NCBI GenBank assembly: GCA_025351485.1
Contig: JANXVU010000147.1
Coordinates: 6,067 to 70,066 of the forward strand
Direction: 5' to 3'
DNA from: Candidatus Eiseniibacteriota bacterium
GTDB taxonomy: Bacteria; Eisenbacteria; RBG-16-71-46; JACRLI01
Length of the DNA: 64,000 nucleotides
Position numbers and translations under genes: made by a program. Within the stretch, counting starts at the first letter, position 1. Every line of letters begins with the position of its first letter. The notes under the pieces are model-generated. The model was not told the origin of the DNA. It made no database searches and saw nothing but the letters and a program-made list of their open reading frames with translations. This document shows, piece by piece, positions 21,097 to 64,000 of this stretch.

Positions 21097-21143
21097 GCAT
21101 GGCCCGGGGCCTTCGGTACGCCGAAGGGACGGAGGGCTAGCCG

Positions 21144-22700: not shown

Positions 22701-23084
22701 GTGAAACTCATCCGCAGCCAGCGTGGCTTCACGCTCATCGAGCTCGTGATCGTCATCGTGATCCTGGGCATCATCGCTTCGATCGCCCTTCCGAAGTATG
22801 AAGACATGCGCGAGAACGCCCGTTCGGCCGCCATCAAGGGCCAGCTGGGCGCCATCCGCGCGGCGGTCGCCATCCAGTACGCCAAGACCTCGTTGACCAC
22901 CAACGCGGCGGCCTTCCCCAGCCTGACCGGCGCCATCTTCGCCGACGGACAGATCCCGCTGGAGCCGGTGACCAACGTGCGCACGGTCAAGGCCACCAGC
23001 GGCGTGGACAACGCGGGCGGCTGGCAGTACCTGTCGGCCACCGGCGTCGTGAAGTGCAACCTGAACTCCTACTCGAGCTACTAA
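22701..23084 (+). CDS. pilA: type IV pilin (class III prepilin signal)
   Basis: AGGAGG RBS then GTG 22701. (M)KLIRSQRG|FTLIELVIVIVILGIIASIALPKY is the canonical prepilin cleavage/methylation motif. 127 aa with a single Cys and a C-terminus ...NLNSYSSY. Confidence 0.85.
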   Translation: MKLIRSQRGFTLIELVIVIVILGIIASIALPKYEDMRENARSAAIKGQLGAIRAAVAIQYAKTSLTTNAAAFPSLTGAIFADGQIPLEPVTNVRTVKATSGVDNAGGWQYLSATGVVKCNLNSYSSY

Positions 23085-23094
23085 GGGACCGCAG

Positions 23095-42028: not shown

Positions 42029-42030
42029 GT

Positions 42031-43353: not shown

Positions 43354-43363
43354 GTCGTTCCCT

Positions 43364-44332: not shown

Positions 44333-44339
44333 TTCGGGT

Positions 44340-45092: not shown

Positions 45093-45105
45093 CGGTCGCG
45101 CTTGC

Positions 45106-50437: not shown

Positions 50438-50669
50438 TGAAAAACGATTATCGCACCACAGGTGACAGCTTACAAGGATTGGCTGCGCGACAGGTGACGC
50501 GGGGGGAAAAATTTGCGCCGGCCCTGGTCGCCGCTCGCACAAGGCGTGGCGGGCGATAGAGCCGGCGGCAAGTTCTTAAAGGCCGGGGGGAAACCGCCTC
50601 GAGGGGCGGTGTCCCTTCACATCGTTGGATGCTTTTCGGTGCGATTTAGTTCCGGAAAATCTGCGTTTT

Positions 50670-51128
50670 CTAGTCGCGATCGCGATCCCGGTCCCGGTCC
50701 TCGTCGCCATGGCGTCCGTGGTCGTGATGTTCGCGCTTCATCTTCCAAAGGTGGCGCGAATCCCGGTCCTCGTACATGCCATGGTGATAACGGCGATAGT
50801 GCCGGTTGGCGCCGAGCAACTGGCGAGGCACGCGATCGATTCCCACGGACATCCAGGGCCCGCGGTGCGCGCGCGACCAGAACCAGTTGCGGCCGCGGCA
50901 GGAGTACCAGCCGCCTTCCCCGCGATAGACTTCGGCTTCCTGGTAGTCGGCGGCGTACCCGGATCGGGTTCCCGGCTCCAGGACGCACCCCGCTTGATCT
51001 CCCCCGCTCCGGACATCCACATGGATATACGTGGCGGCGGAAGCTACCGTGACGCTGAATCCGACGGTCACCAGGACCGCCAGGGCGGCCGCGGCCCCCA
51101 GCCGTAGTTGCTTCGATGTCAAGTTCAT
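50670..51128 (-). CDS. secreted protein with a His/Asp/Arg-rich C-terminal tail
   Basis: GGGAGGAG RBS, ATG 51126-51128. Signal peptide MNLTSKQLRLGAAAALAVLVTVGFSVTVASA, then ...WYSCRGRNWFWSRAHRGPW..., ending RYHHGMYEDRDSRHLWKMKREHHDHGRHGDEDRDRDRDRD. Confidence 0.5.
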   Translation of the reverse strand: MNLTSKQLRLGAAAALAVLVTVGFSVTVASAATYIHVDVRSGGDQAGCVLEPGTRSGYAADYQEAEVYRGEGGWYSCRGRNWFWSRAHRGPWMSVGIDRVPRQLLGANRHYRRYHHGMYEDRDSRHLWKMKREHHDHGRHGDEDRDRDRDRD

Positions 51129-51289
51129 GCGCTCCTCCCTTTCCAGGGCCCCGAGCTGGCCTGTCCGGATGTCTGGAATCCTCAATTGCGTCCCAAACTC
51201 GAGCTCGAATCCATAGATCCTGCATAAGGCAACGGGCGTGCCGGACCTGGGGCTACTGTAGAAAACAGACTAAGACGCTATCAAATTAA

Positions 51290-51472
51290 CACATAGGCTA
51301 ACAGGCCCCACCGGGACCCGTGCCAACTCCCGGAGCCAAGTGACCGTGCTGACACACCCTTGCTGCGCCAGGGTCACACTTCCCGGCGGGGATCCCTCAA
51401 GTTCAATCCCCACGTGACCGATCTTCTGGTTGGAGCCGAACTTTAGATTCCCCTAAACTTCCTTTTAGGCTA
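51290..51472. promoter_or_regulatory. candidate DtxR/MntR-type operator half-sites in the mntR upstream region
   Basis: TAGGCTA occurs twice (ataggctaacag at ~51292 and ttttaggctattct at ~51461, about 15 nt before the mntR ATG). It resembles the TTAGGTTAGCCTAACCTAA iron-box half-site. Confidence 0.25.
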
Positions 51473-51482
51473 TTCTCAACTT

Positions 51483-52151
51483 ATGCCCAGCCCAACCGTG
51501 GAAAACTACCTGAAAGCGTTGTTCCAGCTCGCCGTTCCGGAGCGGGGGGTCAGCACGCGCGAGCTGGCCGGCAGGTTGCTGGTCAAGGACGCCTCGGTCA
51601 CCCATATGCTCAAGCGGCTGTCCGGGACCGGGATGGTGAGCTACGAGCCGTACCGGGGGGCGACCCTTACACCGGAGGGACGGCAGGCGGCCACGGCGGT
51701 CCTGCGGCGCCACCGAATATTGGAATTGTTCCTTCACCGGATGTGCCGGCTGTCGCTGGACAAGGTGCACGCCGAGGCGGAGCGGCTGGAGCACGCCGCC
51801 TCCGAGGACTTCGTGGACGCCCTGGACCGGCTGATGGACTTTCCCACCCTGGATCCGCATGGAGATCCCATCCCCGACCGCGAAGGCCGGCTGCGCGGGA
51901 TCGACTCCCGCCCGCTGACCGATATCCCACCGGGCGCACGGGTGGTGCTGGTGCGCGTGGAAGATGCCCGCCCGGAGGCCCTCACTTACCTGGTCAGCGA
52001 GGGACTGGTCCCGGGCCGCAAAGTCACGGTGGCGCGCCGGCTGGACTTCGATGGATCGGTGGAGCTCCAGTTGGGCCGCCGCCGCCTCATGCTGGCACGC
52101 GAGCTGGCCGAGGGCATCCATGTGACCCCCGACGAGGGGAGCGCGGAATGA
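51483..52151 (+). CDS. mntR: DtxR/MntR-family metal-dependent transcriptional repressor with a C-terminal FeoA/SH3-like domain
   Basis: MPSPTVENYLKALFQLAVPERGVSTRELAGRLLVKDASVTHMLKRL (wHTH); the metal-site helices ...RRHRILELFL...HAEAERLEHAASEDF...; C-terminal ...GARVVLVRVED... (FeoA-like). Confidence 0.85.
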   Translation: MPSPTVENYLKALFQLAVPERGVSTRELAGRLLVKDASVTHMLKRLSGTGMVSYEPYRGATLTPEGRQAATAVLRRHRILELFLHRMCRLSLDKVHAEAERLEHAASEDFVDALDRLMDFPTLDPHGDPIPDREGRLRGIDSRPLTDIPPGARVVLVRVEDARPEALTYLVSEGLVPGRKVTVARRLDFDGSVELQLGRRRLMLARELAEGIHVTPDEGSAE

Positions 52152-53566
52152 GCTCTCCCAACCCGAAGCAGCCCGAGAGGTCCGCCCCGCCCGGGCGTCC
52201 TTCCACGCCGTCCCTTTCGGAGGTTTTCCGAAGCGTCCCGGTCAGCGGACGCGGCTGGCTCCGACGGCTGTTCGCCTTTGCGGGGCCGGGCTATCTGGTG
52301 AGCGTGGGCTACATGGACCCGGGCAACTGGGGCACCGACATCGCCGGCGGCGCGCAGTTCGGCTATGCGCTGCTGTGGGTGATCCTGCTTTCCAATCTCA
52401 TGGCGATGCTGCTGCAGACCCTGTGCGTGCGACTGGGCCTCGCGACCGGAAGAGACCTGGCGCAGGCGTGCCGGGACTACTACAAGAGGCCGGTGGCCGT
52501 GGCGCTGTGGCTGCTGTGCGAGATCGCCATCGTGGCCTGCGACCTGGCCGAGGTGGTGGGTTCGGCCGTGGCGCTCAACCTGCTGTTCCATATCCCGCTG
52601 CTGTGGGGCGTGCTCATCACCGGGCTGGACGTGCTGCTGCTGCTGGGCGCCATGAGTTTCGGATTCCGAAAGATCGAGGCCGTGGTGGTCACGCTGGTGT
52701 TCACGGTGGGGATCTGCTTCGCCATGCAGACCTTCCTGGCCCACCCGGCGTGGCCGCAGGTGGCCGCGGGCTTCGTGCCGAGCATTCCGGGGCCGCAGGC
52801 CTTCGTGATCGCGCTCGGGATCCTGGGAGCGACGGTCATGCCGCACAATCTGTACCTGCATTCGGCGCTGGTGCAGACCCGCGCGAGCCGGCAGACGCCC
52901 GCGGGTATCACCGAAGCCATCAAGTTCAACACCATCGACACCATCGTGGCGCTGGGCGCGGCGTTCTTCGTGAACGCGGCCATCCTGGTGGTGGCATCCG
53001 CGGTGTTCCACACTCGCGGATACACCCACGTCTCGGAGCTGCAGGAGGCGCACAAACTGCTCACCCCGCTGCTGGGCGCCCCGGTGGCGGCCACGGCGTT
53101 CGCGGTGGCGCTGCTGGCCTCGGGGCAGTCGTCCACCATCACCGGAACGCTGGCCGGGCAGATCGTGATGGAAGGCTTTCTCAACATCCGGATCCGGCCG
53201 TGGCTGCGGAGGATCATCACCCGGAGCCTGGCGATCATTCCGGCGATGGTGCTGTTCTCCTTCACCGGCGGCAGGGACACGGTGGCCCTGCTGGTCATGT
53301 CCCAGGTGGTGCTGTCGCTGCAACTCTCCTTCGCGATCTTTCCGCTGATGATGTTCACCAGCGACCGGCGGCTCATGGGCGAGTTCGTGAACCCGCCGGC
53401 GCTCAAGATCGCGGGCTATGCGACGTGCCTGCTGATCGCCTCGCTGAATGCCTACTACTTGTACACCAGCATCGGGCCGCTGTGGCTGGGCGTGGTGGCC
53501 GCGGCGATGATTGGTTTTGCGGTCTGGGTCCGGTATTTCTACCGGGAGGGCCCGGCGGCCGCCTGA
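52148..53566 (+). CDS. mntH: NRAMP-family divalent metal (Mn2+/Fe2+) transporter
   Basis: ATG overlaps the mntR stop (ATGA). ...FAFAGPGYLVSVGYMDPGNWGTDIAGGAQFGYALLWVILLSNLMAMLLQ... (DPGN motif) and MPHNLYLHSAL (consensus transport motif). Confidence 0.9.
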   Translation: MSSPNPKQPERSAPPGRPSTPSLSEVFRSVPVSGRGWLRRLFAFAGPGYLVSVGYMDPGNWGTDIAGGAQFGYALLWVILLSNLMAMLLQTLCVRLGLATGRDLAQACRDYYKRPVAVALWLLCEIAIVACDLAEVVGSAVALNLLFHIPLLWGVLITGLDVLLLLGAMSFGFRKIEAVVVTLVFTVGICFAMQTFLAHPAWPQVAAGFVPSIPGPQAFVIALGILGATVMPHNLYLHSALVQTRASRQTPAGITEAIKFNTIDTIVALGAAFFVNAAILVVASAVFHTRGYTHVSELQEAHKLLTPLLGAPVAATAFAVALLASGQSSTITGTLAGQIVMEGFLNIRIRPWLRRIITRSLAIIPAMVLFSFTGGRDTVALLVMSQVVLSLQLSFAIFPLMMFTSDRRLMGEFVNPPALKIAGYATCLLIASLNAYYLYTSIGPLWLGVVAAAMIGFAVWVRYFYREGPAAA

Positions 53567-53668
53567 GGCGAATGGTCAGCGCCTGGTGCGCCCGCTCCCT
53601 GCCCTTTTCAAGCCTTGCCCCCCCATCCCCTGTTCAGCCCCCCTTCAAAGTGGTAAATTTCCCATCCC

Positions 53669-54310
53669 ATGGAACGCAAGGATCTGGAAGGTCTGGTTCG
53701 GCAGTTGGTGACGGACGTGGTGGCCCGCGTGGATGCGGCCGCCAAGGCTCCGGTGGCCCCGCCGTGCCATGAAACCGAGCCGCTTTCGCCGAAAAAGTCC
53801 GCGGCTCCGGCCGGGGCCTCGCCCGCCGCCGCGGGACCCGCGCCGCTCTCCAAGGAGCTTCGCGTGGTGATCGGCTCCGACCATGGCGGCTTTGCGCTGA
53901 AAGAGGAGCTGGTCTCGCACCTGCATGCGCTGGGCTACGCGGTGATCGACGTGGGCACGCACGGCACCGAGGCGGTGGACTATCCTGACTTTGCCAAGGC
54001 GGTGGCCCAGCGGGTCGCGCGCGGCGAATGCGACCGTGGGATCGTCATCGACGGGGCCGGGATCGGCTCCGGGATGGCGTGCAACAAGGTGGCCGGTGTT
54101 CGCGCCGCGGTGTGTCACGACCTGAAGAGCGTGCTGAACTCGCGCGACCACAACGACGCCAACGTGCTTTCCCTGGGCTCCGGCGTGGTGAGCCCCGAAC
54201 TGGCCCGCGAAATGGTGGCCACCTGGCTCAAGACCCCCTTTGGCGCCGGCCGCCACTCCCGCCGGATCGCCAAGATCAACGAACTCGACCGCGACAGGAC
54301 CCGCGCATGA
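53669..54310 (+). CDS. rpiB: ribose-5-phosphate isomerase B (RpiB/LacAB family) with a 62-aa N-terminal extension
   Basis: Core [19 protein letters not shown]...[30 protein letters not shown]...[10 protein letters not shown] is RpiB. The extension [21 protein letters not shown] + [40 protein letters not shown] is a predicted amphipathic helix followed by an Ala/Pro-rich linker. Confidence 0.85.
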
Positions 54311-55215
54311 CCGACCCCAAGCTGATCGAAGCCATCGTCCAGGAAGTGCTGCGCCGCCTGCCGTCCTCCGCGGGAGCCAGCACCTGCGGCGACTGCACCT
54401 CGTGCGGGCACTGCGCGGTGAAGAAGCCCGAGATGATCAAGAGCCTCGTGGACCAGGGCGCCTGCCGCATCGGCTGCTGCCCCGGCGTGGGATCGGGCAT
54501 GCCGCCCACGCTGGCCTGCCTGATCGACCACACCCTGCTCAAGCCCGACGCCCCGCGCTCCGACGTGGAAAAGCTGTGCACGGAAGCGCTCGAGTACAAC
54601 TTTGCCTCGGTGTGCATCAACCCCTCGTGGGTCTCCCTGTGCCGCGACAAGCTGCGCGGCAGCGAGGTCAAAGTTTGCACCGTGATTGGTTTCCCGCTGG
54701 GGGCCAACACCACCCAGACCAAGGCGTTCGAAACCCGGCGGGCCATCCTGGACGGGGCCACCGAGGTGGATATGGTGATCAACGTCGGGCGGCTCAAGAG
54801 CGGCGACAACGACTACGTGGAAAAGGACATTCGCGAAGTGGTGGAGCAGGCCCGCCCCAACGTGCTGACCAAGGTGATCCTCGAGACCGCCCTGCTCAGC
54901 AAGGAAGAGATCGTGCGCGCTTCGCTGCTCGCGCGTTCCGCCGGGGCCAACTTCGTGAAAACCTCCACCGGGTTCGCCTCCGGCGGGGCCACCGCCGAGG
55001 ACGTGCGCCTGATGCGCCAGGCCGTGGGCGACCGCATGGGCGTGAAAGCTTCCGGCGGCATCCGAGACCGCAAAGTGGCCGAGGAAATGGTGGAGGCCGG
55101 CGCAACCCGCATCGGCGCCTCCGCCAGCGTGAAGATCGTGACCGAGGCGGCGGCCGCGGCCGGCGCGCCCAAGGCGGTCACCGAGAGCGCGGCCTCGGCA
55201 AAGTCGCAGTACTAG
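54307..55215 (+). CDS. deoC: deoxyribose-phosphate aldolase (DERA) with a 78-aa N-terminal extension
   Basis: ATG overlaps the rpiB stop (ATGA). Core [14 protein letters not shown]...CINPSWV...[12 protein letters not shown]...[10 protein letters not shown]...[10 protein letters not shown] (Schiff-base Lys)...VKASGGIRD is DeoC. The extension [18 protein letters not shown] + [50 protein letters not shown] is a predicted amphipathic helix followed by a Cys-rich segment. Confidence 0.85.
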
Positions 55216-55281
55216 GCAGCTTCCTTCCGCGCTACACTTGCTGCATGGGCGACCCTCCGCCCCGGCTTCGGAGATCCGGCC

Positions 55282-57417
55282 ATGCCCGTCCGCAAGATTG
55301 CCGCCCGCGCCACTCTTCTGACGCTCCTCCTGGGGCTGCTTCCGCTTATCAATTCCTGCGGCGACTCCACCACCCAACCCAATCCCGCTGTGTGCGAGAT
55401 CACCCCGGCGTCGCTCGACTTCTCGATCGTCCTGGCCGGGAGTAGCTCCGACCGGCAGATCACCGTCCGGAACACCGGCGGCTCCCGGTTGGAGGGCGCA
55501 GCGCGGGTGACCAGCGCGGTGTTCCACCTGGTGGGCGATACAACGTTTTCCCTGGATGCCGGACGCAGCGCGGTGCTCACGTTGCGCTATTCACCCGCAG
55601 CGGCGGGATCCGATTCGTGCGTGGTGAGCTTCACGGCGGCGGGCTGCGGGAGCCTCCGCGCGCGGGGCACGGGCACGGTGGTGGCGCAGACGTCCTGCCG
55701 GGTGCGGCCGGCGCAGATTGACTTCGGCCCGGTGCCTACCACCGGCTTCTCCGATCGCACCTTTACATTGGCCAACACCGGCAACGTCCGGATCACCGGC
55801 ATGGTCCAGGCCAATTGTGCATGGTTCCAGGTGGTCTCGCCGCCTTCCGGGTACGACCTCGCGCCCGGGGACTCGGCCACGTTCACCGTGCGCTTCCGTC
55901 CCGGATCGGTCGGTGCGCAGTCGTGCAGCATTTCCACGGGACAGAATGGTTGCGGCTCCGTGCTGGTCTCCGGAACGGGCAGCAGCAATTCCGGTGCGGT
56001 GTGCCAGTTCGATCCTGCCTCCCTCGATTTCGGGCGGGTCACGGGCGGGAGCCAGGACCGCACCTTCACTTTGGCCAACAATTCCGAACTGCCGATCACC
56101 GGGAGCATCCAACTGAGCTGCCCGGATTTCTCGCTGCTCGGAGCCGGCTCGGTTTCGCTGGCCGCACACCAGTCGGCATCGTATACGGTGAGATTTCACC
56201 CCGCGGTCTATGGAACCGAGACGTGCATGCTATCCGCGACCATCGCGGGCTGCGGAACCCTGCCCATGAGCGGAAGCTATGGCGGCCTGAACAGCTGCGA
56301 CGTGGCTCCGACAGATCTCGACTACGGGCTCCTGACCACGGGCCAGTCCCGGGAACTCACTTTCCGGATCCTGAATACCAGCGTGCAGGTGGTGGCAGGC
56401 GTGGTGTCCTCGCCCGAAGCGGGGTTCACCGTCGAAAACCCGACCTACAGCCTTGCCCCGGGCGCCCAGGTCACCATCCGGGTCACGGCGCATGCGCTCG
56501 GCGCCGGAACTCGTACCGCCCAACTCGACCTGGGCACGACCGCTTGCTTCGGCCCCCGGGCCAGGGTGCGGGTCTCGGAACCGCTGGCGCCGGGCTACCT
56601 GAAATGGGGTTCGCTGGGAAGCGCGGACGGCCAGTTCAGCAGCCCCTCGGGTGTGGCGGTGGGAGTGGACGGATCCGTCTATGTGACGGACGAGCACAAT
56701 GACCGGGTGCAGAAGTTCGGCGCAGACGGAGTTTTCCAGGCGTCGTTCACCGGATTCCATGGTCCTGCGGGTATCGCCGCCGATAAGCTGGGCGATATCT
56801 TCGTGAAAGATTCCGGGACCGGGATGATCCTCCGGATGAATTCCAGCGGCGCTGTGCTTGGCTCCTGGCAAGTCGGGATCTACAGCACGGGTCTCGCCTC
56901 GGACGACTCGGGAAACGTCTACGTGGCCATCGATGCAGCGCCCGCTGGGGTCTACAAGTACACCCGGGAAGGCGTACTGACGGGCCGTCTCACCGGCCAG
57001 ACGGGGGCCGGCCTGGGAGTGGATGGGGCCGGCGACGTTTACATCGGAGCCGCGGAGGCGGTGTACAGGTTGCATGCGGGCAGCGTGATCGCCACCTGGC
57101 CGAGCCCCCTGGGCCCGAACCTGCCATACAATCAATCGAGCCTGGGAGGGCTGGCCCTGGACGGGGCCGGGAACGTGTTGGTGACCCGCTACACCAACGA
57201 CACGGGAGTGGCGGCCGAAGTGGAAGTGCTCGAATCCCACGGAATCCTGGTCCACCGCTTCGGCGTGCAGGGCAGCGAGGACGGGGCCTTCTACTACCCC
57301 ACCGGCATCGCCGTCTCCCCCTCCGGTTACGTCTACGTGGTGGACCGCGCCAACCACCGGATCCAGCGCTTCGGGCCGGGGCAGTACTCCAAAGGCAGGT
57401 CAACTCTCCATCCTTGA
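55282..57417 (+). CDS. lipoprotein with five tandem Ig-like (ASH / choice-of-anchor-D-type) domains followed by an NHL-repeat beta-propeller
   Basis: Signal + lipobox LLPLINSC. Five ~75-aa repeats share C..I.P..LDFG.V..G.S.DRTFTL.N.G...ITG......C.F........Y.LAPG.S..F.VRF.P...G...C.....GCG. C-terminal NHL repeats (GSADGQFSSPSGVAVGVDGSVYVTDEHNDRVQKF..., ...YVVDRANHRIQRF). Confidence 0.75.
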   Translation: MPVRKIAARATLLTLLLGLLPLINSCGDSTTQPNPAVCEITPASLDFSIVLAGSSSDRQITVRNTGGSRLEGAARVTSAVFHLVGDTTFSLDAGRSAVLTLRYSPAAAGSDSCVVSFTAAGCGSLRARGTGTVVAQTSCRVRPAQIDFGPVPTTGFSDRTFTLANTGNVRITGMVQANCAWFQVVSPPSGYDLAPGDSATFTVRFRPGSVGAQSCSISTGQNGCGSVLVSGTGSSNSGAVCQFDPASLDFGRVTGGSQDRTFTLANNSELPITGSIQLSCPDFSLLGAGSVSLAAHQSASYTVRFHPAVYGTETCMLSATIAGCGTLPMSGSYGGLNSCDVAPTDLDYGLLTTGQSRELTFRILNTSVQVVAGVVSSPEAGFTVENPTYSLAPGAQVTIRVTAHALGAGTRTAQLDLGTTACFGPRARVRVSEPLAPGYLKWGSLGSADGQFSSPSGVAVGVDGSVYVTDEHNDRVQKFGADGVFQASFTGFHGPAGIAADKLGDIFVKDSGTGMILRMNSSGAVLGSWQVGIYSTGLASDDSGNVYVAIDAAPAGVYKYTREGVLTGRLTGQTGAGLGVDGAGDVYIGAAEAVYRLHAGSVIATWPSPLGPNLPYNQSSLGGLALDGAGNVLVTRYTNDTGVAAEVEVLESHGILVHRFGVQGSEDGAFYYPTGIAVSPSGYVYVVDRANHRIQRFGPGQYSKGRSTLHP

Positions 57418-57699
57418 GGTCTTTGCGGCCTCTGAAATATCCCCATTGAGCCGCCGCCCCCGCTTGGGCTAAAGTGGCTGGACTCGAAACCCACGAGAGT
57501 GCGCGACCGGAAACCCACCCTCCCCGGATGCCCGCACCGGCAGCAGCGCGGCCCCTTGAGAGCCCGCCAGGCGTGATTCGTCACGAAGAATTCATCCGGA
57601 CGGTGGCCGTTTGTCGCTTGCCTGCCCTGTATCGTTGGGGCAGACTCGCGCCTCACCCATGACTGCCAGCGTCCTTTACCGGGGCCCACAAACGCACGC

Positions 57700-60558
57700 A
57701 TGATCCTGCGCCGCTCGACTCACCTCGCCCTCGCCCTGATCGTGTTCTTGATCACCTCCCTGGCCACCGCCCATGCGGACCAGCGAGGCCTTCTTTCCGG
57801 AAGGATCCTGGACCAGGACGGCCACGCCATCCCTTTTGCCAGCGTGGGCATCCCGGCGGCCAAGACCGGGGGCCTCAGCGATGCCGAGGGCAACTACCGC
57901 GTTTCAGGCCTCACGGCCGGCACCTACCAGGTCAAGGTTAACTATATTGGTTATGAACCGACCACGGACGATGTGGTCATCGAAGAGGGTAAAACCACCC
58001 AGAAGAATTTCAAGCTCAAACAAATTATCGTCAAAAGAGAGAAGGAAGTAGTCGTTACCGCCGACCGGCCGCTGGTCGAAGTCCGCTCCTCCTCCACCGT
58101 CCGCTCCGTCACCAGCGAAGACATCAAGAAGCTGGCCGTCACCAACCTGGAGCAGGTGCTGGAGCAGCAGACCGGCACGGCCAAGACCAACGACGAGATC
58201 CACGTGCGTGGAGGTCGTTCGGACGAAGTGAGTTACGTGGTGGACGGGGCTAAGACCCGCGACCTGGTCTCGGGCAAGGGCACCGCCGGCAAGATCTCCT
58301 CGGGATCGGTCGCCGAAGTCGGCGTGATCACCGGGGGCTTCGACGCCGAGTTCGGGCAGGCGCTCTCGGGCGTGGTGCAGGTGCGGCTCAAGGAAGGCTC
58401 GTCGAAGTACCACGGCAGCTTCGAGTACCGCACCGACAAGGTCGGTTCCCTGGTGGACTCGTCCAGCTCGTTCAACACCGACGGGGCCAGCTTCCAGGTG
58501 GACGGGCCGGAGCCGCTGACCCGCCTGCTGGGCTGGAACGGGGATTCCAAGCTGACCTTCCTGGCCAGCCTGAACACCGAGTTCTCCGACACTTACCTGA
58601 AGAACATCCACAGCAACGGCAACGACTTCAAGCTCACGCCCGGCTACCAGGACTCGTTCCTGGGCAGCCTGCTCCGCTACGGCCACTTCTTTTCGCCGCG
58701 GCAGGACAACGGCTGGCAGTGCCTGTACAAGCTGGCCTACAAGGCCGCCACCAGCGACAAGTATTCGATCACTTACAATAAGTCGCTGCAGATCGACCAG
58801 GGCTTTGGCCGCCACCTGGTGAGCGACATCGCCGACGACCGCAACACCTACCCCTACCGCTGGACCAACCGCCTGGATCACGCGGCCATCGACACCGAGG
58901 ACAACACCACGATCTCCGGCACCTGGACCCACGTGTTCGGAACCAGCCTGGTCCAGCAGGTGCAGCTGGCCCGCAACGTGAGCGTGCTGCACGTAGGGGT
59001 GCAGGGCAAGAACGGCGAAGAGACCCCGTGGCGCGAGTACGTGGCCCCCAACGACGACATCTGGAAGGTGCTGGGCGCCGGGACCGCCGATACGCTGCGG
59101 GCCTACGACCTGTTCTACGACACCGGCGACGACTCCATCTTCCAGGACCGCTACAGCCGCGAGACCACGCTTTCCTACAGCTTGAACAGCGCCTCGCGTC
59201 ACCACGACATCAAGTTCGGCACCGAGCTCAATCTGCAATCGGCGCAGTTCATCGACATCGAGAACCCGTGGGACTACGACCCCGACACCCTGGGCAGCAA
59301 GCACGACATCTTCACCGTGCACCCGGCCACGGGCGACCTGTACCTGCGCGACCGCGTGGACTACGAGGGTTTCGTGGCCGACATCGGCGCCCGCTGGGAC
59401 CTGTACTTCCCGGGCAAGGAAGCCGAAGCCGCGGTCCTGGACACCAACAACCTGAACATCACCAGGACCGTGCGGGACGGATTCCAGAACGAAACCTTCA
59501 GCCTGATGGGCCGGCGCGTGAAGGCCCATCTTTCGCCGCGCATCTCGGTGTCGCACCCGATCACCGAGCGGGACAACTTCTATTTCAACTACGGCGAATT
59601 CACGCAGTGGCCGGCCTACTACTACATCTATTCCAAGATCGGCTCGATCTCGAGCGAGAACTTTCCGCAGATCGGCAACGTGAATCTGGACCCGACGGTC
59701 TCCATCCAGTTCGAGCTGGGCGGCCGGCACCAGATCTCGGATTTCCTCGGGGCCAACATCGCGTTCTACCAGAAGGACACCTACGGCTACCCGACGCTGG
59801 CCAGCTCGCAGCGCATCCAGGGCGCCAGCAACGCGCCGTTCTCGATCTACCTGAACAGCGACTTTTCGCGCTCCCGCGGAATCGAGCTGGAGCTGGAGAA
59901 GCGCCGCTCGAAGTATTTCTCGTACAAGGGCACCTACGAATACTCCACCATCCGCTCCAAGTCGTCCTCGCCCAACCAGCTGAAGATCATCCAGGAACTG
60001 GGCGGCGACACGCGCGAGGCGCGGGTGGGCGAGGAGATCGCCTACTGGCATCGCCCGCACCAGGGCCGGTTGCGGCTCTCCTGGAGCACCGGGGACGAAA
60101 CCGGCAAGAAGGCGTTCCTGGGCCTGATCGATCTGCCCAGCCGCTTCAGCATGTCGTGGAACTTCAGTCTGCGCTCGGGCCGCGCCTACACGCCGGGCCG
60201 GGTGCGGTTGACGTACGACTCCAAGGACTCGTCGGTGGCGGTTTCTTCGGAAGCCATCGGCGCTTCCAATTCGGCCAACGCGCCGGCGGAGTTCAACTGC
60301 GACCTGAAGCTGGCCAAGTCTTTCAGCATTTTCGGCCGCTCCCTGGATGCGAACCTGACCGCCACCAATCTTTTCAACACCGGCCGCTCGAAGTTCATCG
60401 ACCCGACCACCGGCAAGGCGTACACGGACGGCCAGGGGCTGTGGGGCTACTACGAGAAGACGGCGATCCAGAAGTACCGGCACACCCAGATCGCATCGAA
60501 TCCGTCGGTGCTGGGACAGGGAAGGAACATCCGATTGAGCGTGGGCTATGACTGGTAG
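57700..60558 (+). CDS. TonB-dependent outer-membrane receptor with an N-terminal carboxypeptidase-regulatory-like domain (SusC/RagA-like architecture)
   Basis: Signal peptide; GRILDQDGHAIPFASVGIPAAKTGGLSDAEGNYRVSGLTAGTYQVKVNYIGYEP (CarbopepD_reg_2); plug (EVVVTADRPLVEVRSSSTVRSVTSEDI...EIHVRGGRSDE...YVVDG); ~22-strand barrel ending ...GRNIRLSVGYDW. Confidence 0.8.
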   Translation: MILRRSTHLALALIVFLITSLATAHADQRGLLSGRILDQDGHAIPFASVGIPAAKTGGLSDAEGNYRVSGLTAGTYQVKVNYIGYEPTTDDVVIEEGKTTQKNFKLKQIIVKREKEVVVTADRPLVEVRSSSTVRSVTSEDIKKLAVTNLEQVLEQQTGTAKTNDEIHVRGGRSDEVSYVVDGAKTRDLVSGKGTAGKISSGSVAEVGVITGGFDAEFGQALSGVVQVRLKEGSSKYHGSFEYRTDKVGSLVDSSSSFNTDGASFQVDGPEPLTRLLGWNGDSKLTFLASLNTEFSDTYLKNIHSNGNDFKLTPGYQDSFLGSLLRYGHFFSPRQDNGWQCLYKLAYKAATSDKYSITYNKSLQIDQGFGRHLVSDIADDRNTYPYRWTNRLDHAAIDTEDNTTISGTWTHVFGTSLVQQVQLARNVSVLHVGVQGKNGEETPWREYVAPNDDIWKVLGAGTADTLRAYDLFYDTGDDSIFQDRYSRETTLSYSLNSASRHHDIKFGTELNLQSAQFIDIENPWDYDPDTLGSKHDIFTVHPATGDLYLRDRVDYEGFVADIGARWDLYFPGKEAEAAVLDTNNLNITRTVRDGFQNETFSLMGRRVKAHLSPRISVSHPITERDNFYFNYGEFTQWPAYYYIYSKIGSISSENFPQIGNVNLDPTVSIQFELGGRHQISDFLGANIAFYQKDTYGYPTLASSQRIQGASNAPFSIYLNSDFSRSRGIELELEKRRSKYFSYKGTYEYSTIRSKSSSPNQLKIIQELGGDTREARVGEEIAYWHRPHQGRLRLSWSTGDETGKKAFLGLIDLPSRFSMSWNFSLRSGRAYTPGRVRLTYDSKDSSVAVSSEAIGASNSANAPAEFNCDLKLAKSFSIFGRSLDANLTATNLFNTGRSKFIDPTTGKAYTDGQGLWGYYEKTAIQKYRHTQIASNPSVLGQGRNIRLSVGYDW

Positions 60559-61546
60559 CGTGAAGAAGATGGCCCTGCTGGCCGCCCTGCTCGCCCTTCC
60601 GTGCGCCGCGCATGCCCAGGATCAGCAGTTGGGCGGACAGCGCCGCGGCACGGCCTCGCTGGAGTTCTTGAAGATCGGCGTGGGCGCCCGGGCCGAGGCC
60701 ATGGGCGAGGCGTTCGTCTCGGTGGCCAACGACCCCAGCGCCATGTACTGGAACCCCGCGGGCGTGGCCTCGCTGCAGCGCCGTTCGGCCCAGATTTCCA
60801 CGACCCAGTATCCGGCCGACATCCGGTACAACCACCTCTCGGTGGTGTTCCCTTCCGAGGCGCTCGACGGCTCGATCGGGATCCAGATTGGCGGCCTGGC
60901 CTCCGACATGCCGGAGACGGACGAGTTCCATCCCTACGGCACCGGCCGCACCTTCACGTTCACGGACTTCGTGATGGGCGCCACCTACGCGCGGCGCTTC
61001 ACGGACAAGCTGCTGATCGGCTTTGGAATGAAGTTCGCGCGCGAGGACTACGGCTCGCAGCTCGACGCCCCGGTCACGCAGGCGCTGCTCTTCGACATCG
61101 GCTCGATCTACTACATCGGCTTCCGCAGCCTGCGCGTGGGCATGTCGCTCACCAATTTCGGCGGCGACGTGGGCCCACGGGGCTCGTTCGTCTCCTCCAA
61201 CGGCAGCGGCACCCGCTCCTACGACACTTTCACCGCGCCCACGACGTTCCGCTACGGCGTCGGCTTCGAGCCGCTGGAACGCGAGAACCTCCGCGTGACC
61301 GCGGCCCTGGAGGCCACCCAGCCTTCCGACAACCGGATCGAGTACCGGGTGGGCACCGAGGTCCTGTTCCAGGGCCACCTGGCGCTCCGCTCGGGATACC
61401 AGATCCGCAGCGACGCGTTCAAGTTCTCGGCCGGCGCCGGATTCAAGGGCGAGATCAGCTCGCTGGCGGGCGAAGTGGACTACGCCTACACCGACGGCGG
61501 CCCGCTGGGGCACGTGAACCGGCTTTCGCTGCAGGTGGCGTTCTGA
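60548..61546 (+). CDS. PorV/PorQ-family outer-membrane beta-barrel protein (T9SS PorV-like; FadL-like fold)
   Basis: Signal peptide ALLAALLALPCAAHAQ; family signature GTASLEFLKIGVGARAEAMGEAFVSVANDPSAMYWNPAGVA; C-terminal ...NRLSLQVAF. ATG 60548 overlaps the TBDT stop by 11 nt (alternative ATG 60569). Confidence 0.7.
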   Translation: MTGSVKKMALLAALLALPCAAHAQDQQLGGQRRGTASLEFLKIGVGARAEAMGEAFVSVANDPSAMYWNPAGVASLQRRSAQISTTQYPADIRYNHLSVVFPSEALDGSIGIQIGGLASDMPETDEFHPYGTGRTFTFTDFVMGATYARRFTDKLLIGFGMKFAREDYGSQLDAPVTQALLFDIGSIYYIGFRSLRVGMSLTNFGGDVGPRGSFVSSNGSGTRSYDTFTAPTTFRYGVGFEPLERENLRVTAALEATQPSDNRIEYRVGTEVLFQGHLALRSGYQIRSDAFKFSAGAGFKGEISSLAGEVDYAYTDGGPLGHVNRLSLQVAF

Positions 61547-62589
61547 TGGCCCGCACGCGAGGCGGCGCGTTTGCCGCGATCTCCCTGCTCACCCTGGCCC
61601 TGACCGGCTGCGGGCGGCTCTTCCCCGCGCCGATCGAGCGGCCCAAGGTCGGGGTGATTCCCCCGCCCGCGACGTTCATCCGCGTGGCCAGCTGGACGCG
61701 TTCCGACTGGAATCCCACCTGCGTCTTCCTGTCCCACAGCGGCGTGCTGCTGGTGGCCGAGGACAGCGCCCGGGTCCAGTACTACACCTCGCTGGGCTAC
61801 CGCGGGCAGGCCCAGCCGTTCAACGACATCTACTCCTTCGGCGGCCTGACCAGGCCGGTGCAGATCGCCGAGGGCGCGGGGCACATCTTCATCGCCGACA
61901 TGGGCGACGGCACCGCGGCGCACCCGATGGCGGTTTTCGAATACGACCCGGTGGGCGCCCTTCCGTTCGCGCCGATCAAGACCATCCGGGACACCTCCTG
62001 GGTCAGGATCCGCGGGCTCGCGGCGGACGAGGCCCGCACGGTGTACGTCTCCTGCGATGCCCGGGTGCTGGTGCCGCAGACGCCCAACCCCGCGGTCATC
62101 GATGTGCAGTCCCTCATTTACCACTACCACGCCAACGGCCTGCGGGACACGACGGCCGAGCAGGGCACCGGGATCGGAACCGTGCAGGGCGCCGGCGCGC
62201 TGGCCTACAAGGACGGCGCGATCTACGCGGCCGACACCGAGAAGGACTGGGGCCAGAAGATCGACGCGGCCGGGAAGAACCTGGGTTACTTCAAGGTGGA
62301 CGGCACCGAGGACGGCGCCCCCGGCCCGCTCAAGGGCCCGGTGGGCGTGGCGGTGGACGACAGCAACTATTTCTACATTTCCGACACCGGGCACGGGCGG
62401 GTGCTGCGCTACTACGTGGACGGCACGTTCAACCAGGTGGTGAACCAGAACGACACGCTGAATGTGGCCGGCGCCAACAACCTGGCCCATCCGGGCTCGG
62501 TGACCGTCGGGCTGGTGAGCGGCAGGCTGTACGCCTACGTGGCCGATCCCTTCCTTCACATCATCAACCTGTACAAGTTCCAGCGATGA
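61546..62589 (+). CDS. lipoprotein with NHL/YVTN-like beta-propeller repeats
   Basis: ATG overlaps the upstream stop (TGATG). Signal + lipobox LTLALTGCG. Repeats HIFIADMGDG..., GPVGVAVDDSNYFYISDTGHGRVLRYY. The upstream 315 codons of the listed ORF 60601..62589 are an artefact. Confidence 0.7.
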   Translation: MARTRGGAFAAISLLTLALTGCGRLFPAPIERPKVGVIPPPATFIRVASWTRSDWNPTCVFLSHSGVLLVAEDSARVQYYTSLGYRGQAQPFNDIYSFGGLTRPVQIAEGAGHIFIADMGDGTAAHPMAVFEYDPVGALPFAPIKTIRDTSWVRIRGLAADEARTVYVSCDARVLVPQTPNPAVIDVQSLIYHYHANGLRDTTAEQGTGIGTVQGAGALAYKDGAIYAADTEKDWGQKIDAAGKNLGYFKVDGTEDGAPGPLKGPVGVAVDDSNYFYISDTGHGRVLRYYVDGTFNQVVNQNDTLNVAGANNLAHPGSVTVGLVSGRLYAYVADPFLHIINLYKFQR

Positions 62590-64000
62590 TGCGCGCGCGA
62601 CTCCTTTCCCTGCTGCTCCTGTCCGGAATGGCTCTGCCGTCGGCGGCGCGAGCCCAGGACCCCGCGCGCCAGAACTACGTCCGGCCGCAGGTGGTGGCGG
62701 TGGGCGGCACCGACTCGATCGGGCTCTACGGCACGAAGACCACCTCGAACAACCTGATCAACCTGACCATATCCAACTCCGGCGGCTGGGGCGTGGGCTT
62801 CACCAGCGCGTCCATCCCGAACATGACTTATCCCGCGGGCCTGCCCTACGAGCACATGGTGCGCGGCGGCCTCTGGATCGGGGCCAAGGTGCTGTGCCCG
62901 GACTGCGACACCTCCGCGCACGGACAGCGGATCGCGGTCTCATTCGGATCCCAGGACGAGGACGGTGGGCAGTCCACCCCGCTCACCGAGTACACTCCGC
63001 TCCCGAACACCGCCTCCAACCGTATCTCCGAGCGCAGCAATCTGGCCAACAGCCCGTTCTTTTCCAAGTTCGCGGTTTCGGAGCAGGACCTGGTGGCGCG
63101 CTTCCGCGACACTCCCGGCAACCGGGTGGGCTCGGAGCCGCACGTGCCACTCAACGTGGAAGTGACCGAGTCCATGTACAGCTGGTCGTTCAGTTTTGCC
63201 GAGAGCTTCGTGATCCAGCACCTGGTGATCAAGAACACCGGCGACCTGCTGCGGGACGTGTACGTGACCCACTACACGGAAATGCAGAGTCTGAACAAGG
63301 CCATCTACGCCAATTACCCGGCCTCCCCGCTGCGTCCGAGCCCCTACAGCAAGAAGAAGTTGACCTACTTTCCGGAGCTGCGGCTGATCGCGGAGAACTA
63401 CTGCGAGTCGCCGCAGAACTGCCACCTGGAGAGGGTGCCGGCCTACGCCGGGGTGATGATCCTGGGGACTCACCCGGACACGGTCGTCAACCTGAACCCC
63501 AAGATCCTGACCCACAAGTACGCGGGCACCGGGCTGGATGAAGGCACGCCCTACGCGCGCGTGGACGATTCGGAGAAGTACGCTTTCCAGCAGTTACCCG
63601 GCGATATCGAGGCCCAGAGCCCCGGGTCCAGCGACCCTTCCCAATGGTTGACGGTGGGACCGATTCCCTCCATCAACCGCGGCGACTCCGTGGTGGTGGA
63701 CTTCGCGTTTGTGGGCGGCATGAGCCCGGAAGAAATCAAGACCACTGCCCGCCACGCGCAACTGGCTTTCGACCTGAACTACAAGCTGCCCACCCCGCCG
63801 CCGTCGCCGCGCATGTACGCGCGCCCGGTGGAACAGGGCGTGGAACTGCTGTGGGAAGGCTCGCCGGACACCACCTTCGACTCCACGGGGCCCGACGGCG
63901 CCCAGCGCGACTTCGAGGGCTACCGGATCTACCTGGGCCCGAACCAGACCAGCCTGAAGTTGATTGCCGCCTTTGACCGGAAGGACACCACCGGGTTCAA
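62586..64000 (+). CDS. secreted hypothetical protein (partial; continues past the window end)
   Basis: ATG overlaps the upstream stop (ATGA). Signal peptide MMRARLLSLLLLSGMALPSAARA|QD. Open frame to 64000 with no stop. No recognised domain. Confidence 0.5.
   Translation, partial: MMRARLLSLLLLSGMALPSAARAQDPARQNYVRPQVVAVGGTDSIGLYGTKTTSNNLINLTISNSGGWGVGFTSASIPNMTYPAGLPYEHMVRGGLWIGAKVLCPDCDTSAHGQRIAVSFGSQDEDGGQSTPLTEYTPLPNTASNRISERSNLANSPFFSKFAVSEQDLVARFRDTPGNRVGSEPHVPLNVEVTESMYSWSFSFAESFVIQHLVIKNTGDLLRDVYVTHYTEMQSLNKAIYANYPASPLRPSPYSKKKLTYFPELRLIAENYCESPQNCHLERVPAYAGVMILGTHPDTVVNLNPKILTHKYAGTGLDEGTPYARVDDSEKYAFQQLPGDIEAQSPGSSDPSQWLTVGPIPSINRGDSVVVDFAFVGGMSPEEIKTTARHAQLAFDLNYKLPTPPPSPRMYARPVEQGVELLWEGSPDTTFDSTGPDGAQRDFEGYRIYLGPNQTSLKLIAAFDRKDTTGF

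Follow-up and report, generated by a model that had tools for sequence, protein, structure and literature searches.

The closest known system to the locus described here is the ddbABCDEF DNA-utilization locus of Bacteroides thetaiotaomicron, in which DNA products are imported by DdbC, a TonB-dependent transporter, together with DdbD, a DUF5689 protein (10.1101/2025.03.18.642099). Transformation of Riemerella requires both a CarboxypepD_reg-type barrel and a DUF5689 protein (PMC8459023). The type IX secretion system provides further points of comparison. PorZ and PorU keep their C-terminal domains, to which PorQ and PorV bind, and a protective role towards such domains has been proposed for cognate PorV-like barrels (PMC10202324). 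PorF (PG0534) of P. gingivalis, which resembles TonB-dependent receptors, is a precedent for a protein of this kind tied to type IX secretion (PMC5445135, PMC8754138). The BAM complex of Bacteroidota includes a FadL-like barrel that is docked on BamA and keeps surface lipoproteins in place (PMC12578637).

We analyzed a 64,000-nucleotide stretch of DNA from a Candidatus Eiseniibacteriota bacterium (the window), which holds the start of a cluster with features of several of these systems. Like the ddb locus and the Riemerella anatipestifer pair RA0C_RS04915/04920, the cluster has a TonB-dependent barrel (that of Riemerella is annotated by CarboxypepD_reg), surface partners of the OB-fold/DUF5689 class, secreted nucleases in the locus in several lineages, and an overall logic like that of a polysaccharide-utilization locus (10.1101/2025.03.18.642099; PMC8459023). 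The ddb surface partners, however, are lipoproteins, with neither a PorV-family barrel nor a type IX C-terminal-domain protein among them, whereas the cluster has two surface proteins with type IX C-terminal domains and a PorV-family barrel gene coupled to that of the transporter. Nothing in ddb corresponds to the NHL lipoprotein, the supersandwich protein g5 or the ThuA-like lipoprotein g6 of the cluster, in which DUF5689 is found in accessory genes only, unlike in ddb.

The first-pass annotation had seen a mixture of Sus-type and type IX elements, and indeed a TonB-dependent transporter with a CarboxypepD_reg extension lies beside a PorV/PorQ-family barrel. It also knew of no functional description of PorV next to a TonB-dependent receptor; we found none in the searchable literature, nor any description of a transporter, a PorV-like barrel and type IX surface proteins in one arrangement.

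Layout and conservation of the cluster

Table 1. Features of the locus, with positions counted from the first nucleotide of the window.
Feature	Position	Strand	Description
rpiB	53669-54310	+	RpiB/LacAB-family sugar-phosphate isomerase; Pfam LacAB_rpiB recorded on orthologues
deoC-like	54307-55215	+	putative DeoC-like deoxyribose-phosphate aldolase; N-terminal CxxCxxCxxC extension
g1	55282-57417	+	711 aa lipoprotein
g1/g2 spacer	57418-57699	.	282 nt
g2	57700-60558	+	952 aa TonB-dependent transporter
g3	60548-61546	+	332 aa PorV/PorQ-family barrel
g4	61546-62589	+	347 aa NHL-repeat lipoprotein
g5	62586-64000, running past the window end	+	first 471 of 676 residues inside the window

All five of the consecutive plus-strand open reading frames initially reported were located, from position 55282 to beyond 64000 (Table 1). 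Coupling by overlap had been ascribed to the whole series; it holds for g2/g3 (11 nt), g3/g4 (1 nt, TGATG) and g4/g5 (4 nt, ATGA), but g1 is set apart from g2 by a 282-nt gap. The same overlaps recur in orthologous loci (medians -11, -1 and -4 nt; n=51-53 loci) and are therefore not due to chance. The g1/g2 spacer, in which we found no Rfam match at E<=1 and no match to either a sigma-70 or a terminator consensus, is presumably where the conserved operon has its promoter region. Nor does the cluster end with g5, as had been supposed, since the complete g5 protein has 676 residues and the conserved genes g6 and g7 come next, past the end of the window.

The conserved unit consists of these six genes, g2 to g7. 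Their order is kept in about 50 Candidatus Eisenbacteria genomes and in essentially all Eisenbacteria loci of sufficient length, with 195 relatives in species genomes. A permuted order, g5-g7-g6-g2-g3-g4, was observed in one Rhodothermia genome and in about 45 metagenome loci with unrelated flanks; the GC content of the metagenome contigs ranges from 35 to 67%. The cluster is conserved in at least two bacterial phyla. The adjacency of g2 and g3 is strongly conserved, and g4 follows g3 in every case, in both locus types.

g1, on the other hand, is a lineage-specific neighbour outside the conserved cluster: no g1 homologue lies beside the cluster in about 150 related loci, and its slot holds a membrane protein in the closest relative (L008) and a g5 paralogue in 16-18 loci. 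HMM searches bore out its assignment as a choice-of-anchor D protein (NF012200, 129 bits over four stretches) with an NHL propeller (E=8e-21), but the five tandem Ig-like domains ascribed to it came down to four Cys-led repeats, at residues 38, 139, 241 and 339. Further upstream, the RpiB isomerase gene, which overlaps the next gene by ATGA, is conserved context outside the core; among the 41 Eisenbacteria loci whose upstream sequence extends for 4 kb or more, 31 have a homologue upstream on the same strand. The product of the following gene appears to be DeoC-like, judging from its sequence and a tblastn match to L008, which shares the RpiB/DeoC-like arrangement of the window. The corresponding slot is occupied by a PF00962 adenosine deaminase in 32 of the 41 other loci. 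Uridine and thymidine kinase genes are also found close to Eisenbacteria cluster loci.

The transporter, the neighbouring barrel and the surface proteins

The g2 protein contains CarboxypepD_reg (59 bits) and Plug (35 bits) domains followed by a barrel. The first two domains were detected in all 44 g2 orthologues, and the barrel matched OMP_b-brl_3 in 25 and TonB_dep_Rec_b-barrel in 13. Residues 117-121 form a conserved, TonB-box-like V-x-V-T-A motif, the last residue of the protein is aromatic, and the g2 profile matches the plugs of Cir and XusA in the PDB. Of the SusC architecture attributed to g2 at first, the N-terminal extension is present, but membership of SusC/RagA was rejected (TIGR04056, 41 bits versus a cutoff of 368). 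As the annotation had stated, SusD is absent, and none of the cluster proteins matched any SusD family. The cluster resembles SusC/SusD-type polysaccharide-utilization loci in combining a CarboxypepD_reg-extended transporter with several non-catalytic surface binding proteins in one operon, and differs from them in the lack of SusD, in the place of g2 outside TIGR04056, in the presumed surface attachment by type IX C-terminal domain and barrel besides lipid, and in having no linked carbohydrate-active enzymes.

The proposed PorV/PorQ-family identity of g3 was upheld by a score of 173 bits against NF033709 (cutoff 90). The protein nevertheless stays below the equivalog cutoffs for PorQ (71/220 bits), PorV (52/250) and PorV2 (60/325), and Rhodothermia-type orthologues show the same pattern, being members of the family but neither PorV nor PorQ. 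The best PDB match is F. johnsoniae PorV (6h3i_F, E=1.9e-6, versus 5e-3 for a FadL-like chain), and identity across Eisenbacteria is 50-78%. The g3 protein is a 14-strand-type barrel of a distinct subfamily within the PorV/PorQ family. The pairs PorQ-PorZ and PorV-PorU, and SprF/PorP with its type B cargo, are comparable in that the gene of a 14-strand PorV-family barrel goes together with that of a surface protein presumed to be retained via an uncleaved C-terminal domain. Translational coupling to a TonB-dependent transporter, as in the cluster, has not been reported for PorQ, PorV or PorP. PorF offers a possible analogy, as a TonB-dependent-receptor-like barrel functionally tied to type IX secretion, but it has not been reported as encoded beside a PorV-family barrel. 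With the BAM complex (BamA-BamG-BamH-K; PMC12578637) the cluster would share a 14-strand, FadL/PorV-like barrel that sits on a larger one and supports an extracellular dome of surface proteins; the large barrel, function and partners differ, and the likeness is an architectural analogy only.

Annotation of g4 as a second NHL lipoprotein agrees with its NHL match (26.5 bits, cutoff 20) and its LTGC lipobox; most orthologues have a lipobox. The g5 protein had been called an unrecognised secreted protein. Its signal peptide and the absence of any match in a family search fit that description, but the protein carries a type IX-type C-terminal domain. The part encoded in the window comprises the signal peptide, a galactose-mutarotase-like beta-supersandwich of sugar-binding type, a PPPSP linker and the first part of an Fn3 domain, the remainder of which lies beyond, as does the C-terminal domain. 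The latter is divergent, falling under the TIGR04183 threshold; it is closest to the domain of PorZ, its only match in NCBIfam (34/55 members), and is remotely related to the PorZ domain and the g7 sorting domain (hhalign probability 62%). Where g5 has its supersandwich, PorZ carries two beta-propellers. The g6 lipoprotein carries a ThuA-like domain besides two Fn3 domains, and g7 encodes OB-fold domains of the nuclease type along with a genuine type A sorting domain (TIGR04183, 42 bits versus a threshold of 23). No catalytic domain was found in any of the six proteins, a profile reminiscent of SusC, SusD, SusE and SusF, which serve in transport and binding.

Links to nucleic acids

ExeM/NucH nucleases are matched in their OB-fold region by residues 390-502 of g7 (E=2e-10; PDB 9sf8, E=1.6e-6), and ExeM requires this region for its activity (PMC6085458). 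The g7 profile also matched, with 99.7% probability, a protein adjoining the cluster in locus L161 that combines LTD, OB-fold (PF01336, above cutoff) and DUF5689 domains. The gene after g4 encodes an EEP nuclease bearing a type A sorting domain in at least 10 loci of the Rhodothermia type, and in about eight Eisenbacteria loci the product of the gene after g7 combines two HKD motifs with a DUF5689-like part and a sorting domain. Neighbours of three kinds point to nucleic acid: secreted nucleases of the EEP or PLD type, a DUF5689 protein, and rpiB accompanied by either adenosine deaminase or deoC. No nuclease is encoded beside the cluster in the lineage of the window itself, and the linkage to nucleoside genes, which is confined to Eisenbacteria, could be neutral synteny. 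The main-domain fold of g5 also speaks against a nucleic-acid substrate, as it is typical of carbohydrate-binding domains and not of nucleic-acid binders. On balance we tentatively favor the view, held at a little less than even confidence, that g2-g7 encode one outer-membrane complex built around the TonB-dependent transporter, with surface subunits that are type IX cargo on a dedicated PorV-like barrel and with extracellular DNA or RNA as the most likely substrate.

Competing explanations and a proposed mechanism

A sub-module of the type IX machinery, an Eisenbacteria/Rhodothermia counterpart of PorF/PorQ/PorZ, is an unlikely competitor. Here g2 would be PorF-like, g3 would act as PorQ, and g5 would be a PorZ-like, glycan- or LPS-presenting protein serving cargo attachment. 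PorF, a TonB-dependent-receptor-like barrel, is required for type IX function, PorQ ranks first among the specific equivalog models for g3 of the window, the C-terminal domain of g5 has PorZ as its sole NCBIfam match, the sugar-binding-type fold of g5 recalls the binding of anionic LPS by PorZ, and the cluster is a single conserved copy phylum-wide beside housekeeping genes. However, g3 falls below the PorQ and PorV cutoffs even in Rhodothermia, members of the Bacteroidota that are expected to encode canonical PorQ and PorV at another place in the genome; g5 lacks the two propellers of PorZ and scores 14-26 bits versus a cutoff of 260; the plug of g2 is intact and its TonB-box-like motif conserved; and the OB-fold protein g7 and the adjoining nucleases would be left unexplained.

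Somewhat less probable still is glycan uptake of the polysaccharide-utilization type, with g5 replacing SusD as the glycan-binding lid and g4, g6 and g7 acting as surface glycan-binding proteins. The N-terminal extension of g2 is typical of SusC-type transporters, the ThuA-like domain of g6 is found too in GH42 and GH164 enzymes, one g7 orthologue weakly matches SusE (E=4e-4, under cutoff), and an accessory protein contains a pullulanase X25 domain. Yet genes for glycoside hydrolases, polysaccharide lyases or sugar catabolism were linked to the cluster in none of the lineages examined, the linked enzymes being nucleases/phosphodiesterases, and one locus conserved phylum-wide is unlike the variable repertoires of polysaccharide-utilization loci.

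We consider it improbable that the cluster is a Riemerella-like outer-membrane device bringing long DNA into the periplasm for natural transformation rather than nutrition, even though it is kept as a single copy and shares with the Riemerella pair the N-terminal domain type of the barrel and the OB-fold/DUF5689 class of DNA-binding partner (PMC8459023). The neighbours of the cluster, which include secreted nucleases as well as adenosine deaminase, DeoC and RpiB, point instead to degradation and catabolism, comEC, dprA and comF were not linked in the loci examined, and a plugged 22-strand barrel is not known to pass long DNA. Finally, it is very improbable that g3 is a channel of the FadL type for hydrophobic compounds, whose adjacency to g2 reflects mere co-regulation of independent outer-membrane proteins, or that g2 exports protein like Myxococcus Oar (Oar-type CarboxypepD_reg transporters secrete PopC): some sources label g3 orthologues 'long-subunit fatty acid transport protein' and there are weak Toluene_X and UPF0164 matches, but the FadL/OmpP1 fit, named at the outset as a challenge to the PorV assignment, reached just 18.7 bits for Toluene_X (cutoff 29.7) versus 173 for the PorV family, two type IX C-terminal-domain proteins always accompany the barrel, and its overlaps with g2 and g4 are conserved across phyla.

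For the favored complex for nucleic-acid uptake, we propose that the overlap of their genes would lead to g2 and g3 being produced at a constant ratio, and that the two would lie side by side in the outer membrane. The g5 and g7 proteins would be exported first via Sec and next by type IX secretion, and would be kept on the surface instead of being released, with g3 holding their C-terminal domains as PorQ holds PorZ and PorV holds PorU. The lipoproteins g4, with its NHL propeller, and g6, with its two Fn3 domains and ThuA-like domain, may complete an extracellular cap. A SusD-like role had been suggested for the NHL lipoproteins and is possible; g5 is itself of type IX type and g7 is a second such protein, and these two, held by the PorV-like barrel, are therefore more likely to be the surface capture subunits. 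The cap would capture a polymer, most likely extracellular DNA or RNA, and pass fragments to g2 for TonB-energised import. The cluster thus probably functions in the capture and import of extracellular nucleic acid.

Gene content and limits of the cluster

The cluster at the end of the window (G+C ~67%) comprises plus-strand genes numbered here g1 to g5, with g6 and g7 as a conserved continuation past the window end. An ORF listing and family scans bore out the five genes and most of the domain calls of the first-pass annotation, which had also described all five as translationally coupled. Three of the four junctions were as claimed: g2 and g3 overlap by 11 nt, g3 and g4 meet in TGATG, and g4 and g5 in ATGA. 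However, g1 and g2 are separated by a 282-nt gap. An Rfam scan of 50000–64000 (E≤1) returned no match in this spacer, so there is no evidence for a riboswitch or leader, and 53500–58000 contained no match to a sigma-70 or terminator consensus, a scan that is uninformative for this phylum. At orthologous loci the median intergenic distances were −11 nt for g2/g3, −1 for g3/g4, −4 for g4/g5, −1 for g5/g6 and +316 for g6/g7.

In the product of g1, choice-of-anchor D matched over four stretches (129 bits) alongside NHL repeats, and four Cys-led repeats were counted by family scan and translation rather than the five Ig-like repeats described at first. A tblastn synteny comparison found no g1 homologue at any related locus; the slot is taken by a g5 paralogue in 16–18 loci and by a membrane protein in L008, the closest relative, and is otherwise empty. 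The NHL region resembles that of g4 only repeat by repeat. The first gene was therefore ruled out as a cluster member, and the conserved unit begins at 57700, not 55282.

Family scans of g2 detected CarboxypepD_reg and Plug domains (Plug 35.3 bits, cutoff 23.9). A generic TonB-dependent transporter consists of a Plug followed by a 22-strand barrel; the window protein scored below the barrel models, and 25 of 44 orthologues matched OMP_b-brl_3 and 13 of 44 TonB_dep_Rec_b-barrel. The N-terminal extension and plug are present in all 44 of this well-conserved family; g2 also ends in an aromatic residue. The g2 profile matched the plugs of Cir, XusA, PirA and YncD and the barrel of PhuR in the PDB, and on these family and profile matches g2 is a predicted TonB-dependent transporter. 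A TonB-box-like V-x-V-T-A motif was spotted by eye at residues 117–121, with V119 invariant in 44/44 orthologues. The SusC assignment made at first did not hold, as g2 scored 41 bits against SusC/RagA TIGR04056 (cutoff 368) with only the N-terminal 160 residues aligned; a Rhodothermia-type orthologue scored 45 bits. The reported lack of a SusD did stand, with no Pfam or NCBIfam match to this family in g1, g3, g4, g5, g6 or g7. PDB entry 9gbc, considered as a PorF structure, was rejected, being that of XusA, which transports xenosiderophores in Bacteroides.

The g3 product matched the PorV/PorQ family model NF033709 at 173.3 bits (cutoff 90) over model positions 1–326, in agreement with its original assignment to this barrel family, and Rhodothermia-type orthologues scored 178–183 bits. 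It fell under the equivalog cutoffs for PorV (NF033710, 52 versus 250 bits) and PorQ (NF033711, 71 versus 220) and also under that for PorV2; its orthologues reached 70–82 bits for PorV and 63–98 bits for PorQ. A lipobox and an NHL repeat were detected in g4.

Elsewhere in the window, 19390–29069 holds a set of genes like those for type II/IV secretion or pili. An unbroken heme-biosynthesis block encodes a HemN-like radical SAM enzyme, uroporphyrinogen decarboxylase, a class III aminotransferase (HemL-like), ALA dehydratase and porphobilinogen deaminase.

Positions of the cluster genes and other features, in window coordinates unless a related locus (L number) is named. Identity is to the window protein in Eisenbacteria loci; profile E-values are for the Rhodothermia contig.
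Feature	Position	Strand	Length or context	Identity	Profile E	Basis
T2SSE ATPase with MshEN domain	19390–21096					
T2SSF platform protein	21144–22376					
TMEM260-like protein O-mannosyltransferase	23095–24945					
Secretin	27759–29069					
Heme-biosynthesis block	39597–46008	−				
Deoxynucleoside kinase-like gene	49760–50542	−				reading of translation
Putative ORF	50670–51185	−	171 aa			
DtxR/MntR-like repressor	51483–52151		between kinase-like gene and rpiB			reading of translation
NRAMP-type transporter	about 52150–53566		between kinase-like gene and rpiB			reading of translation
RpiB and DeoC-like gene	53669–55215		ATGA overlap			
g1	55282–57417	+	711 aa			ORF listing, junction reading
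g2	57700–60558	+	952 aa	about 38–40%	2e-143	ORF listing, junction reading
g3	60548–61546	+	332 aa	about 50–57%	7e-73	ORF listing, junction reading
g4	61546–62589	+	347 aa	about 25–30%	6e-12	ORF listing, junction reading
g5	from 62586, past window end	+	676 aa complete	about 40–45%	1e-107	contigs with identical proteins
g6	beyond window, 8 nt after g5		495-aa lipoprotein	about 30%	2e-43	contigs with identical proteins
g7	beyond window, ~370 nt after g6		673 aa	about 25–30%	2e-34	contigs with identical proteins
g5 paralogue	L004:10001–11935					
Calcineurin-like phosphoesterase and PLDc_2 protein	L005:15958–19060		after g7			
Protein with choice-of-anchor Z-like region	L007:8328–12728	−	1466 aa			
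Tandem g7 paralogues	L063:13775–17989					
EEP-family enzyme	L082:16970–18226		after g4			
Composite post-g7 protein	L010:9661–12225					
Composite post-g7 protein	L014:7383–9815					
Composite post-g7 protein	L018:15166–17715					
Composite post-g7 protein	L012:15620–18193					

A type IX C-terminal domain in g7 and a possible one in g5

The mixture of Sus-type and type IX features without a SusD that had been pointed out is real and conserved, but its decisive elements were overlooked: a protein with a putative type IX C-terminal domain (g5), cut by the end of the window, and one with a clear domain of this kind (g7), encoded past it. The former, g5, had been called an unrecognised secreted protein, and the window family scans indeed gave no hit; its type IX-like C-terminal domain emerged by remote similarity. 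The AlphaFold2 model (pLDDT 82, pTM 0.84) has three parts, namely a supersandwich, a conserved PPPSP linker with an Fn3 domain, and a seven-strand C-terminal domain, and contains no propeller. This last domain aligned to the sorting domain of g7 (hhalign E=7.7e-5, probability 62%), with the motifs PNP, IxIYxxxGxLV and WD..G...A.G.Y.Y in common. TIGR04183 did not hit g5, and the similarity is remote. The PorZ C-terminal domain was the one NCBIfam model matched by the g5 family (34 of 55 members, best E=3e-6). Searches of the PDB with the g5 sequence and profile found nothing.

Other identities for g5 were rejected. Against the PorZ model NF052228 the family scored 14–26 bits (equivalog cutoff 260), in the C-terminal domain only, and the two beta-propellers of PorZ have no counterpart in the g5 model, which shows a supersandwich and Fn3. 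A PorU-like sortase or a glycoside hydrolase was ruled out since the model lacks a peptidase or (alpha/alpha)6 catalytic domain. A g5 paralogue is found in L004 and about 16–18 other Eisenbacteria loci between the adenosine deaminase and the transporter gene g2; the L004 copy gave the best PorZ C-terminal match among individually scanned proteins (E=3.6e-6).

The C-terminus of g7 is a type A sorting domain (TIGR04183 42.1 bits versus 23; FlgD_ig 39.7 bits), and its orthologues scored 48 bits against TIGR04183. Elsewhere in g7, two regions are similar to the OB-fold portion of ExeM/NucH nucleases (NF033681, E=2e-10), and the g7 profile matched PDB 9sf8 (E=1.6e-6). ExeM requires its OB-fold region, the presumed substrate-binding part, for nuclease activity (PMC6085458). 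The g7 profile also aligned at 99.7% probability with a cluster-neighbour protein of L161 in which a lamin-tail domain and an OB-fold scoring over its Pfam cutoff are combined with a pair of DUF5689 domains and a type A sorting domain. No catalytic domain was recognisable in any of the six proteins g2–g7. Several type A sorting-domain proteins occur in Eisenbacteria loci, each covered over up to 22 kb, which lends indirect support to a type IX secretion system in the host genome; no type IX genes were found among the 20 larger window genes scanned. L007, from the same lineage as the window, encodes some 4 kb downstream of the cluster a protein with choice-of-anchor Z-like and quinohemoprotein-type Ig repeats and weak dockerin and type IX sorting matches. 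A closed Eisenbacteria chromosome (L063) carries two g7 paralogues in tandem.

Conservation and genomic neighbours

At least 150 homologues of g5 were found; every one is annotated as hypothetical, and the named sources are all Candidatus Eisenbacteria. A one-genome-per-species scan returned 195 relatives, and essentially all of the best 80 came from Eisenbacteria genomes. Among the loci from these best 80, tblastn synteny found the order g2-g3-g4-g5-g6-g7 in every sufficiently long Eisenbacteria locus. Despite their Eisenbacteria-type clusters, SMAG_U catalogue entries L008, L024, L047, L049, L052 and L056 bear titles that name Saccharimonadales, Limnocylindria, Verrucomicrobiia, Polyangiaceae or Methylomirabilota, and look like mislabelled or contaminated bins.

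A search with g6 led to a protein from a Rhodothermia genome whose contig encodes all six families in the order g5-g7-g6-g2-g3-g4, as confirmed with profiles made from the Eisenbacteria orthologues. A metagenome scan seeded with the Rhodothermia g5 homologue returned 428 relatives, from which 80 loci (GC 35–67%) were kept. Almost all long loci among those 80 carry a compact six-gene operon with overlapping g6/g2 and g2/g3 and with unrelated flanks. The order g2-g3-g4 is invariant across both locus types. Given a six-gene operon in both phyla with unrelated flanks, we conclude that the module is self-contained and far older than the window's lineage.

Genes for RpiB and adenosine deaminase immediately precede the cluster, in the same orientation, in 31–32 of 41 Eisenbacteria loci (in L004 the deaminase stop lies 7 nt before the g5 paralogue), and uridine kinase and thymidine kinase genes are divergent nearby. 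In the window and L008 the deaminase is replaced by a DeoC-like aldolase whose gene overlaps rpiB. No nucleoside-gene linkage was found outside Eisenbacteria, except that two loci have a thymidine kinase gene some distance away. An N-terminal CxxCxxCxxC extension is shared by the DeoC-like proteins of the window and L008, and the window RpiB ORF is ~60 residues longer than typical RpiB. Beside the metal-regulator genes, the product of a putative ORF begins like a signal peptide and ends in a tail rich in His, Asp and Arg (…HHDHGRHGDEDRDRDRDRD).

Directly after g4, at least 10 Rhodothermia-type loci carry an EEP-family enzyme (PF03372 61 bits, weak MnuA membrane nuclease match) with a type A sorting domain; other lineages with this operon are without it. 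In the Eisenbacteria loci L010, L012, L014 and L018 (table) and in L011, L015, L072 and L079, g7 is followed by a composite protein of ~810–855 aa with an OB/DUF5689-like N-terminal region, Fn3, a pair of intact HxKxxxxD motifs (PLD superfamily) and a C-terminal sorting domain of the type IX kind, which makes it a candidate secreted nuclease or phosphodiesterase. After g7 in L005 there is a calcineurin-like phosphoesterase with a FlgD_ig-type C-terminal domain and then, on the opposite strand, a protein with two PLDc_2 domains. The nucleoside-gene, EEP and composite-protein associations arose in separate lineages, and all are nucleic-acid or nucleoside related.

A proposed uptake complex and its alternatives

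Gene content, folds and context suggest an outer-membrane uptake complex. In this architecture, which we consider probable, g2 would import the substrate and g3, made together with g2, would anchor type IX-delivered g5 and/or g7 via their retained C-terminal domains, with the lipoproteins g4 and g6 completing the surface assembly. For such anchoring there is precedent in type IX systems, where PorQ holds PorZ and PorV holds PorU by C-terminal domains that these proteins retain, and cognate PorV-like barrels have been proposed to shield such domains (PMC10202324). In the Bacteroidota BAM complex, a FadL-like barrel sits on BamA, holding surface lipoproteins (PMC12578637). Gene content, folds and context also make extracellular nucleic acid our favoured substrate, an assignment held tentatively; the architecture and this substrate taken together fall just short of an even chance. 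More tentative still is the proposal of an undescribed TonB transporter complex, widespread among FCB bacteria, in which type IX-cargo capture subunits, not SusD-type lipoproteins, would be permanently docked by C-terminal domains on a dedicated PorV-family barrel produced along with the transporter, and which would be a conserved machine to bind and import extracellular DNA or RNA.

We rate the cluster as kin of TonB-dependent polymer-utilization loci, nearest to the DNA-utilization type. According to a 2025 preprint, the ddbABCDEF locus of B. thetaiotaomicron is needed for DNA depletion and encodes, besides nucleases that are secreted, a TonB-dependent transporter, DdbC, and a DUF5689 protein, DdbD, modelled as a DNA-binding partner of DdbC (10.1101/2025.03.18.642099). 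In contrast to ddb, DUF5689 is not reached by g3–g7, although g7 has a related ExeM-type OB region; the domain occurs here only in accessory proteins, that of L161 (67.8 bits) and the PLD-type proteins. Predicted secreted nucleases accompany at least 10 Rhodothermia-type and about 8 Eisenbacteria loci, and none was found beside the cluster in the window's own lineage. The searchable literature describes neither an operon of transporter, PorV-family barrel and C-terminal-domain protein nor type IX secretion in Eisenbacteria, and we found no description in it of this mode of surface-subunit attachment.

The main alternative, which we judge unlikely, is that the cluster is part of the secretion machinery, like PorF, PorQ and PorZ. 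PorF/PG0534 is a type IX component that resembles a TonB-dependent receptor and has no assigned role (PMC5445135, PMC8754138). A glycan-uptake system is a little less likely again; the CarboxypepD_reg extension of g2 would suit it, but no carbohydrate-active enzymes occur among the cluster-neighbour associations. We give still less weight to a transformation device. The ddb locus is related to a Riemerella pair that is essential for natural transformation and whose barrel has no annotation other than CarboxypepD_reg (PMC8459023); g2 and that barrel (RA0C_RS04915) were compared through this annotation, which they share. Independent FadL-type or export functions are very improbable; g3 scored 18.7 bits against FadL/OmpP1/TodX PF03349 (Toluene_X, gathering score 29.7) with ~45 N-terminal residues aligned, and PorV of F. 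johnsoniae was its best PDB relative (E=1.9e-6), with a FadL-like chain behind it (E=5e-3).

If the uptake-complex reading is correct, type IX secretion and TonB-dependent nutrient uptake, hallmarks of Bacteroidota and their relatives, would be joined in one complex, and there would be a second route to an extracellular lid for a TonB-dependent transporter. A third PorV/PorQ subfamily would gain a function, as would the g4–g7 families, whose members in hundreds of environmental genomes now go by "hypothetical". If some cultivated member of the class carries the operon, the Rhodothermia-type form might lend itself to tests in culture. On the uptake reading, the newly recognised DNA-utilization and DNA-uptake transporters would not be confined to gut Bacteroidales and would also occur in Eisenbacteria from soil and Rhodothermia-type bacteria from marine or hypersaline settings, with a bearing on extracellular-DNA turnover in soils and oceans.
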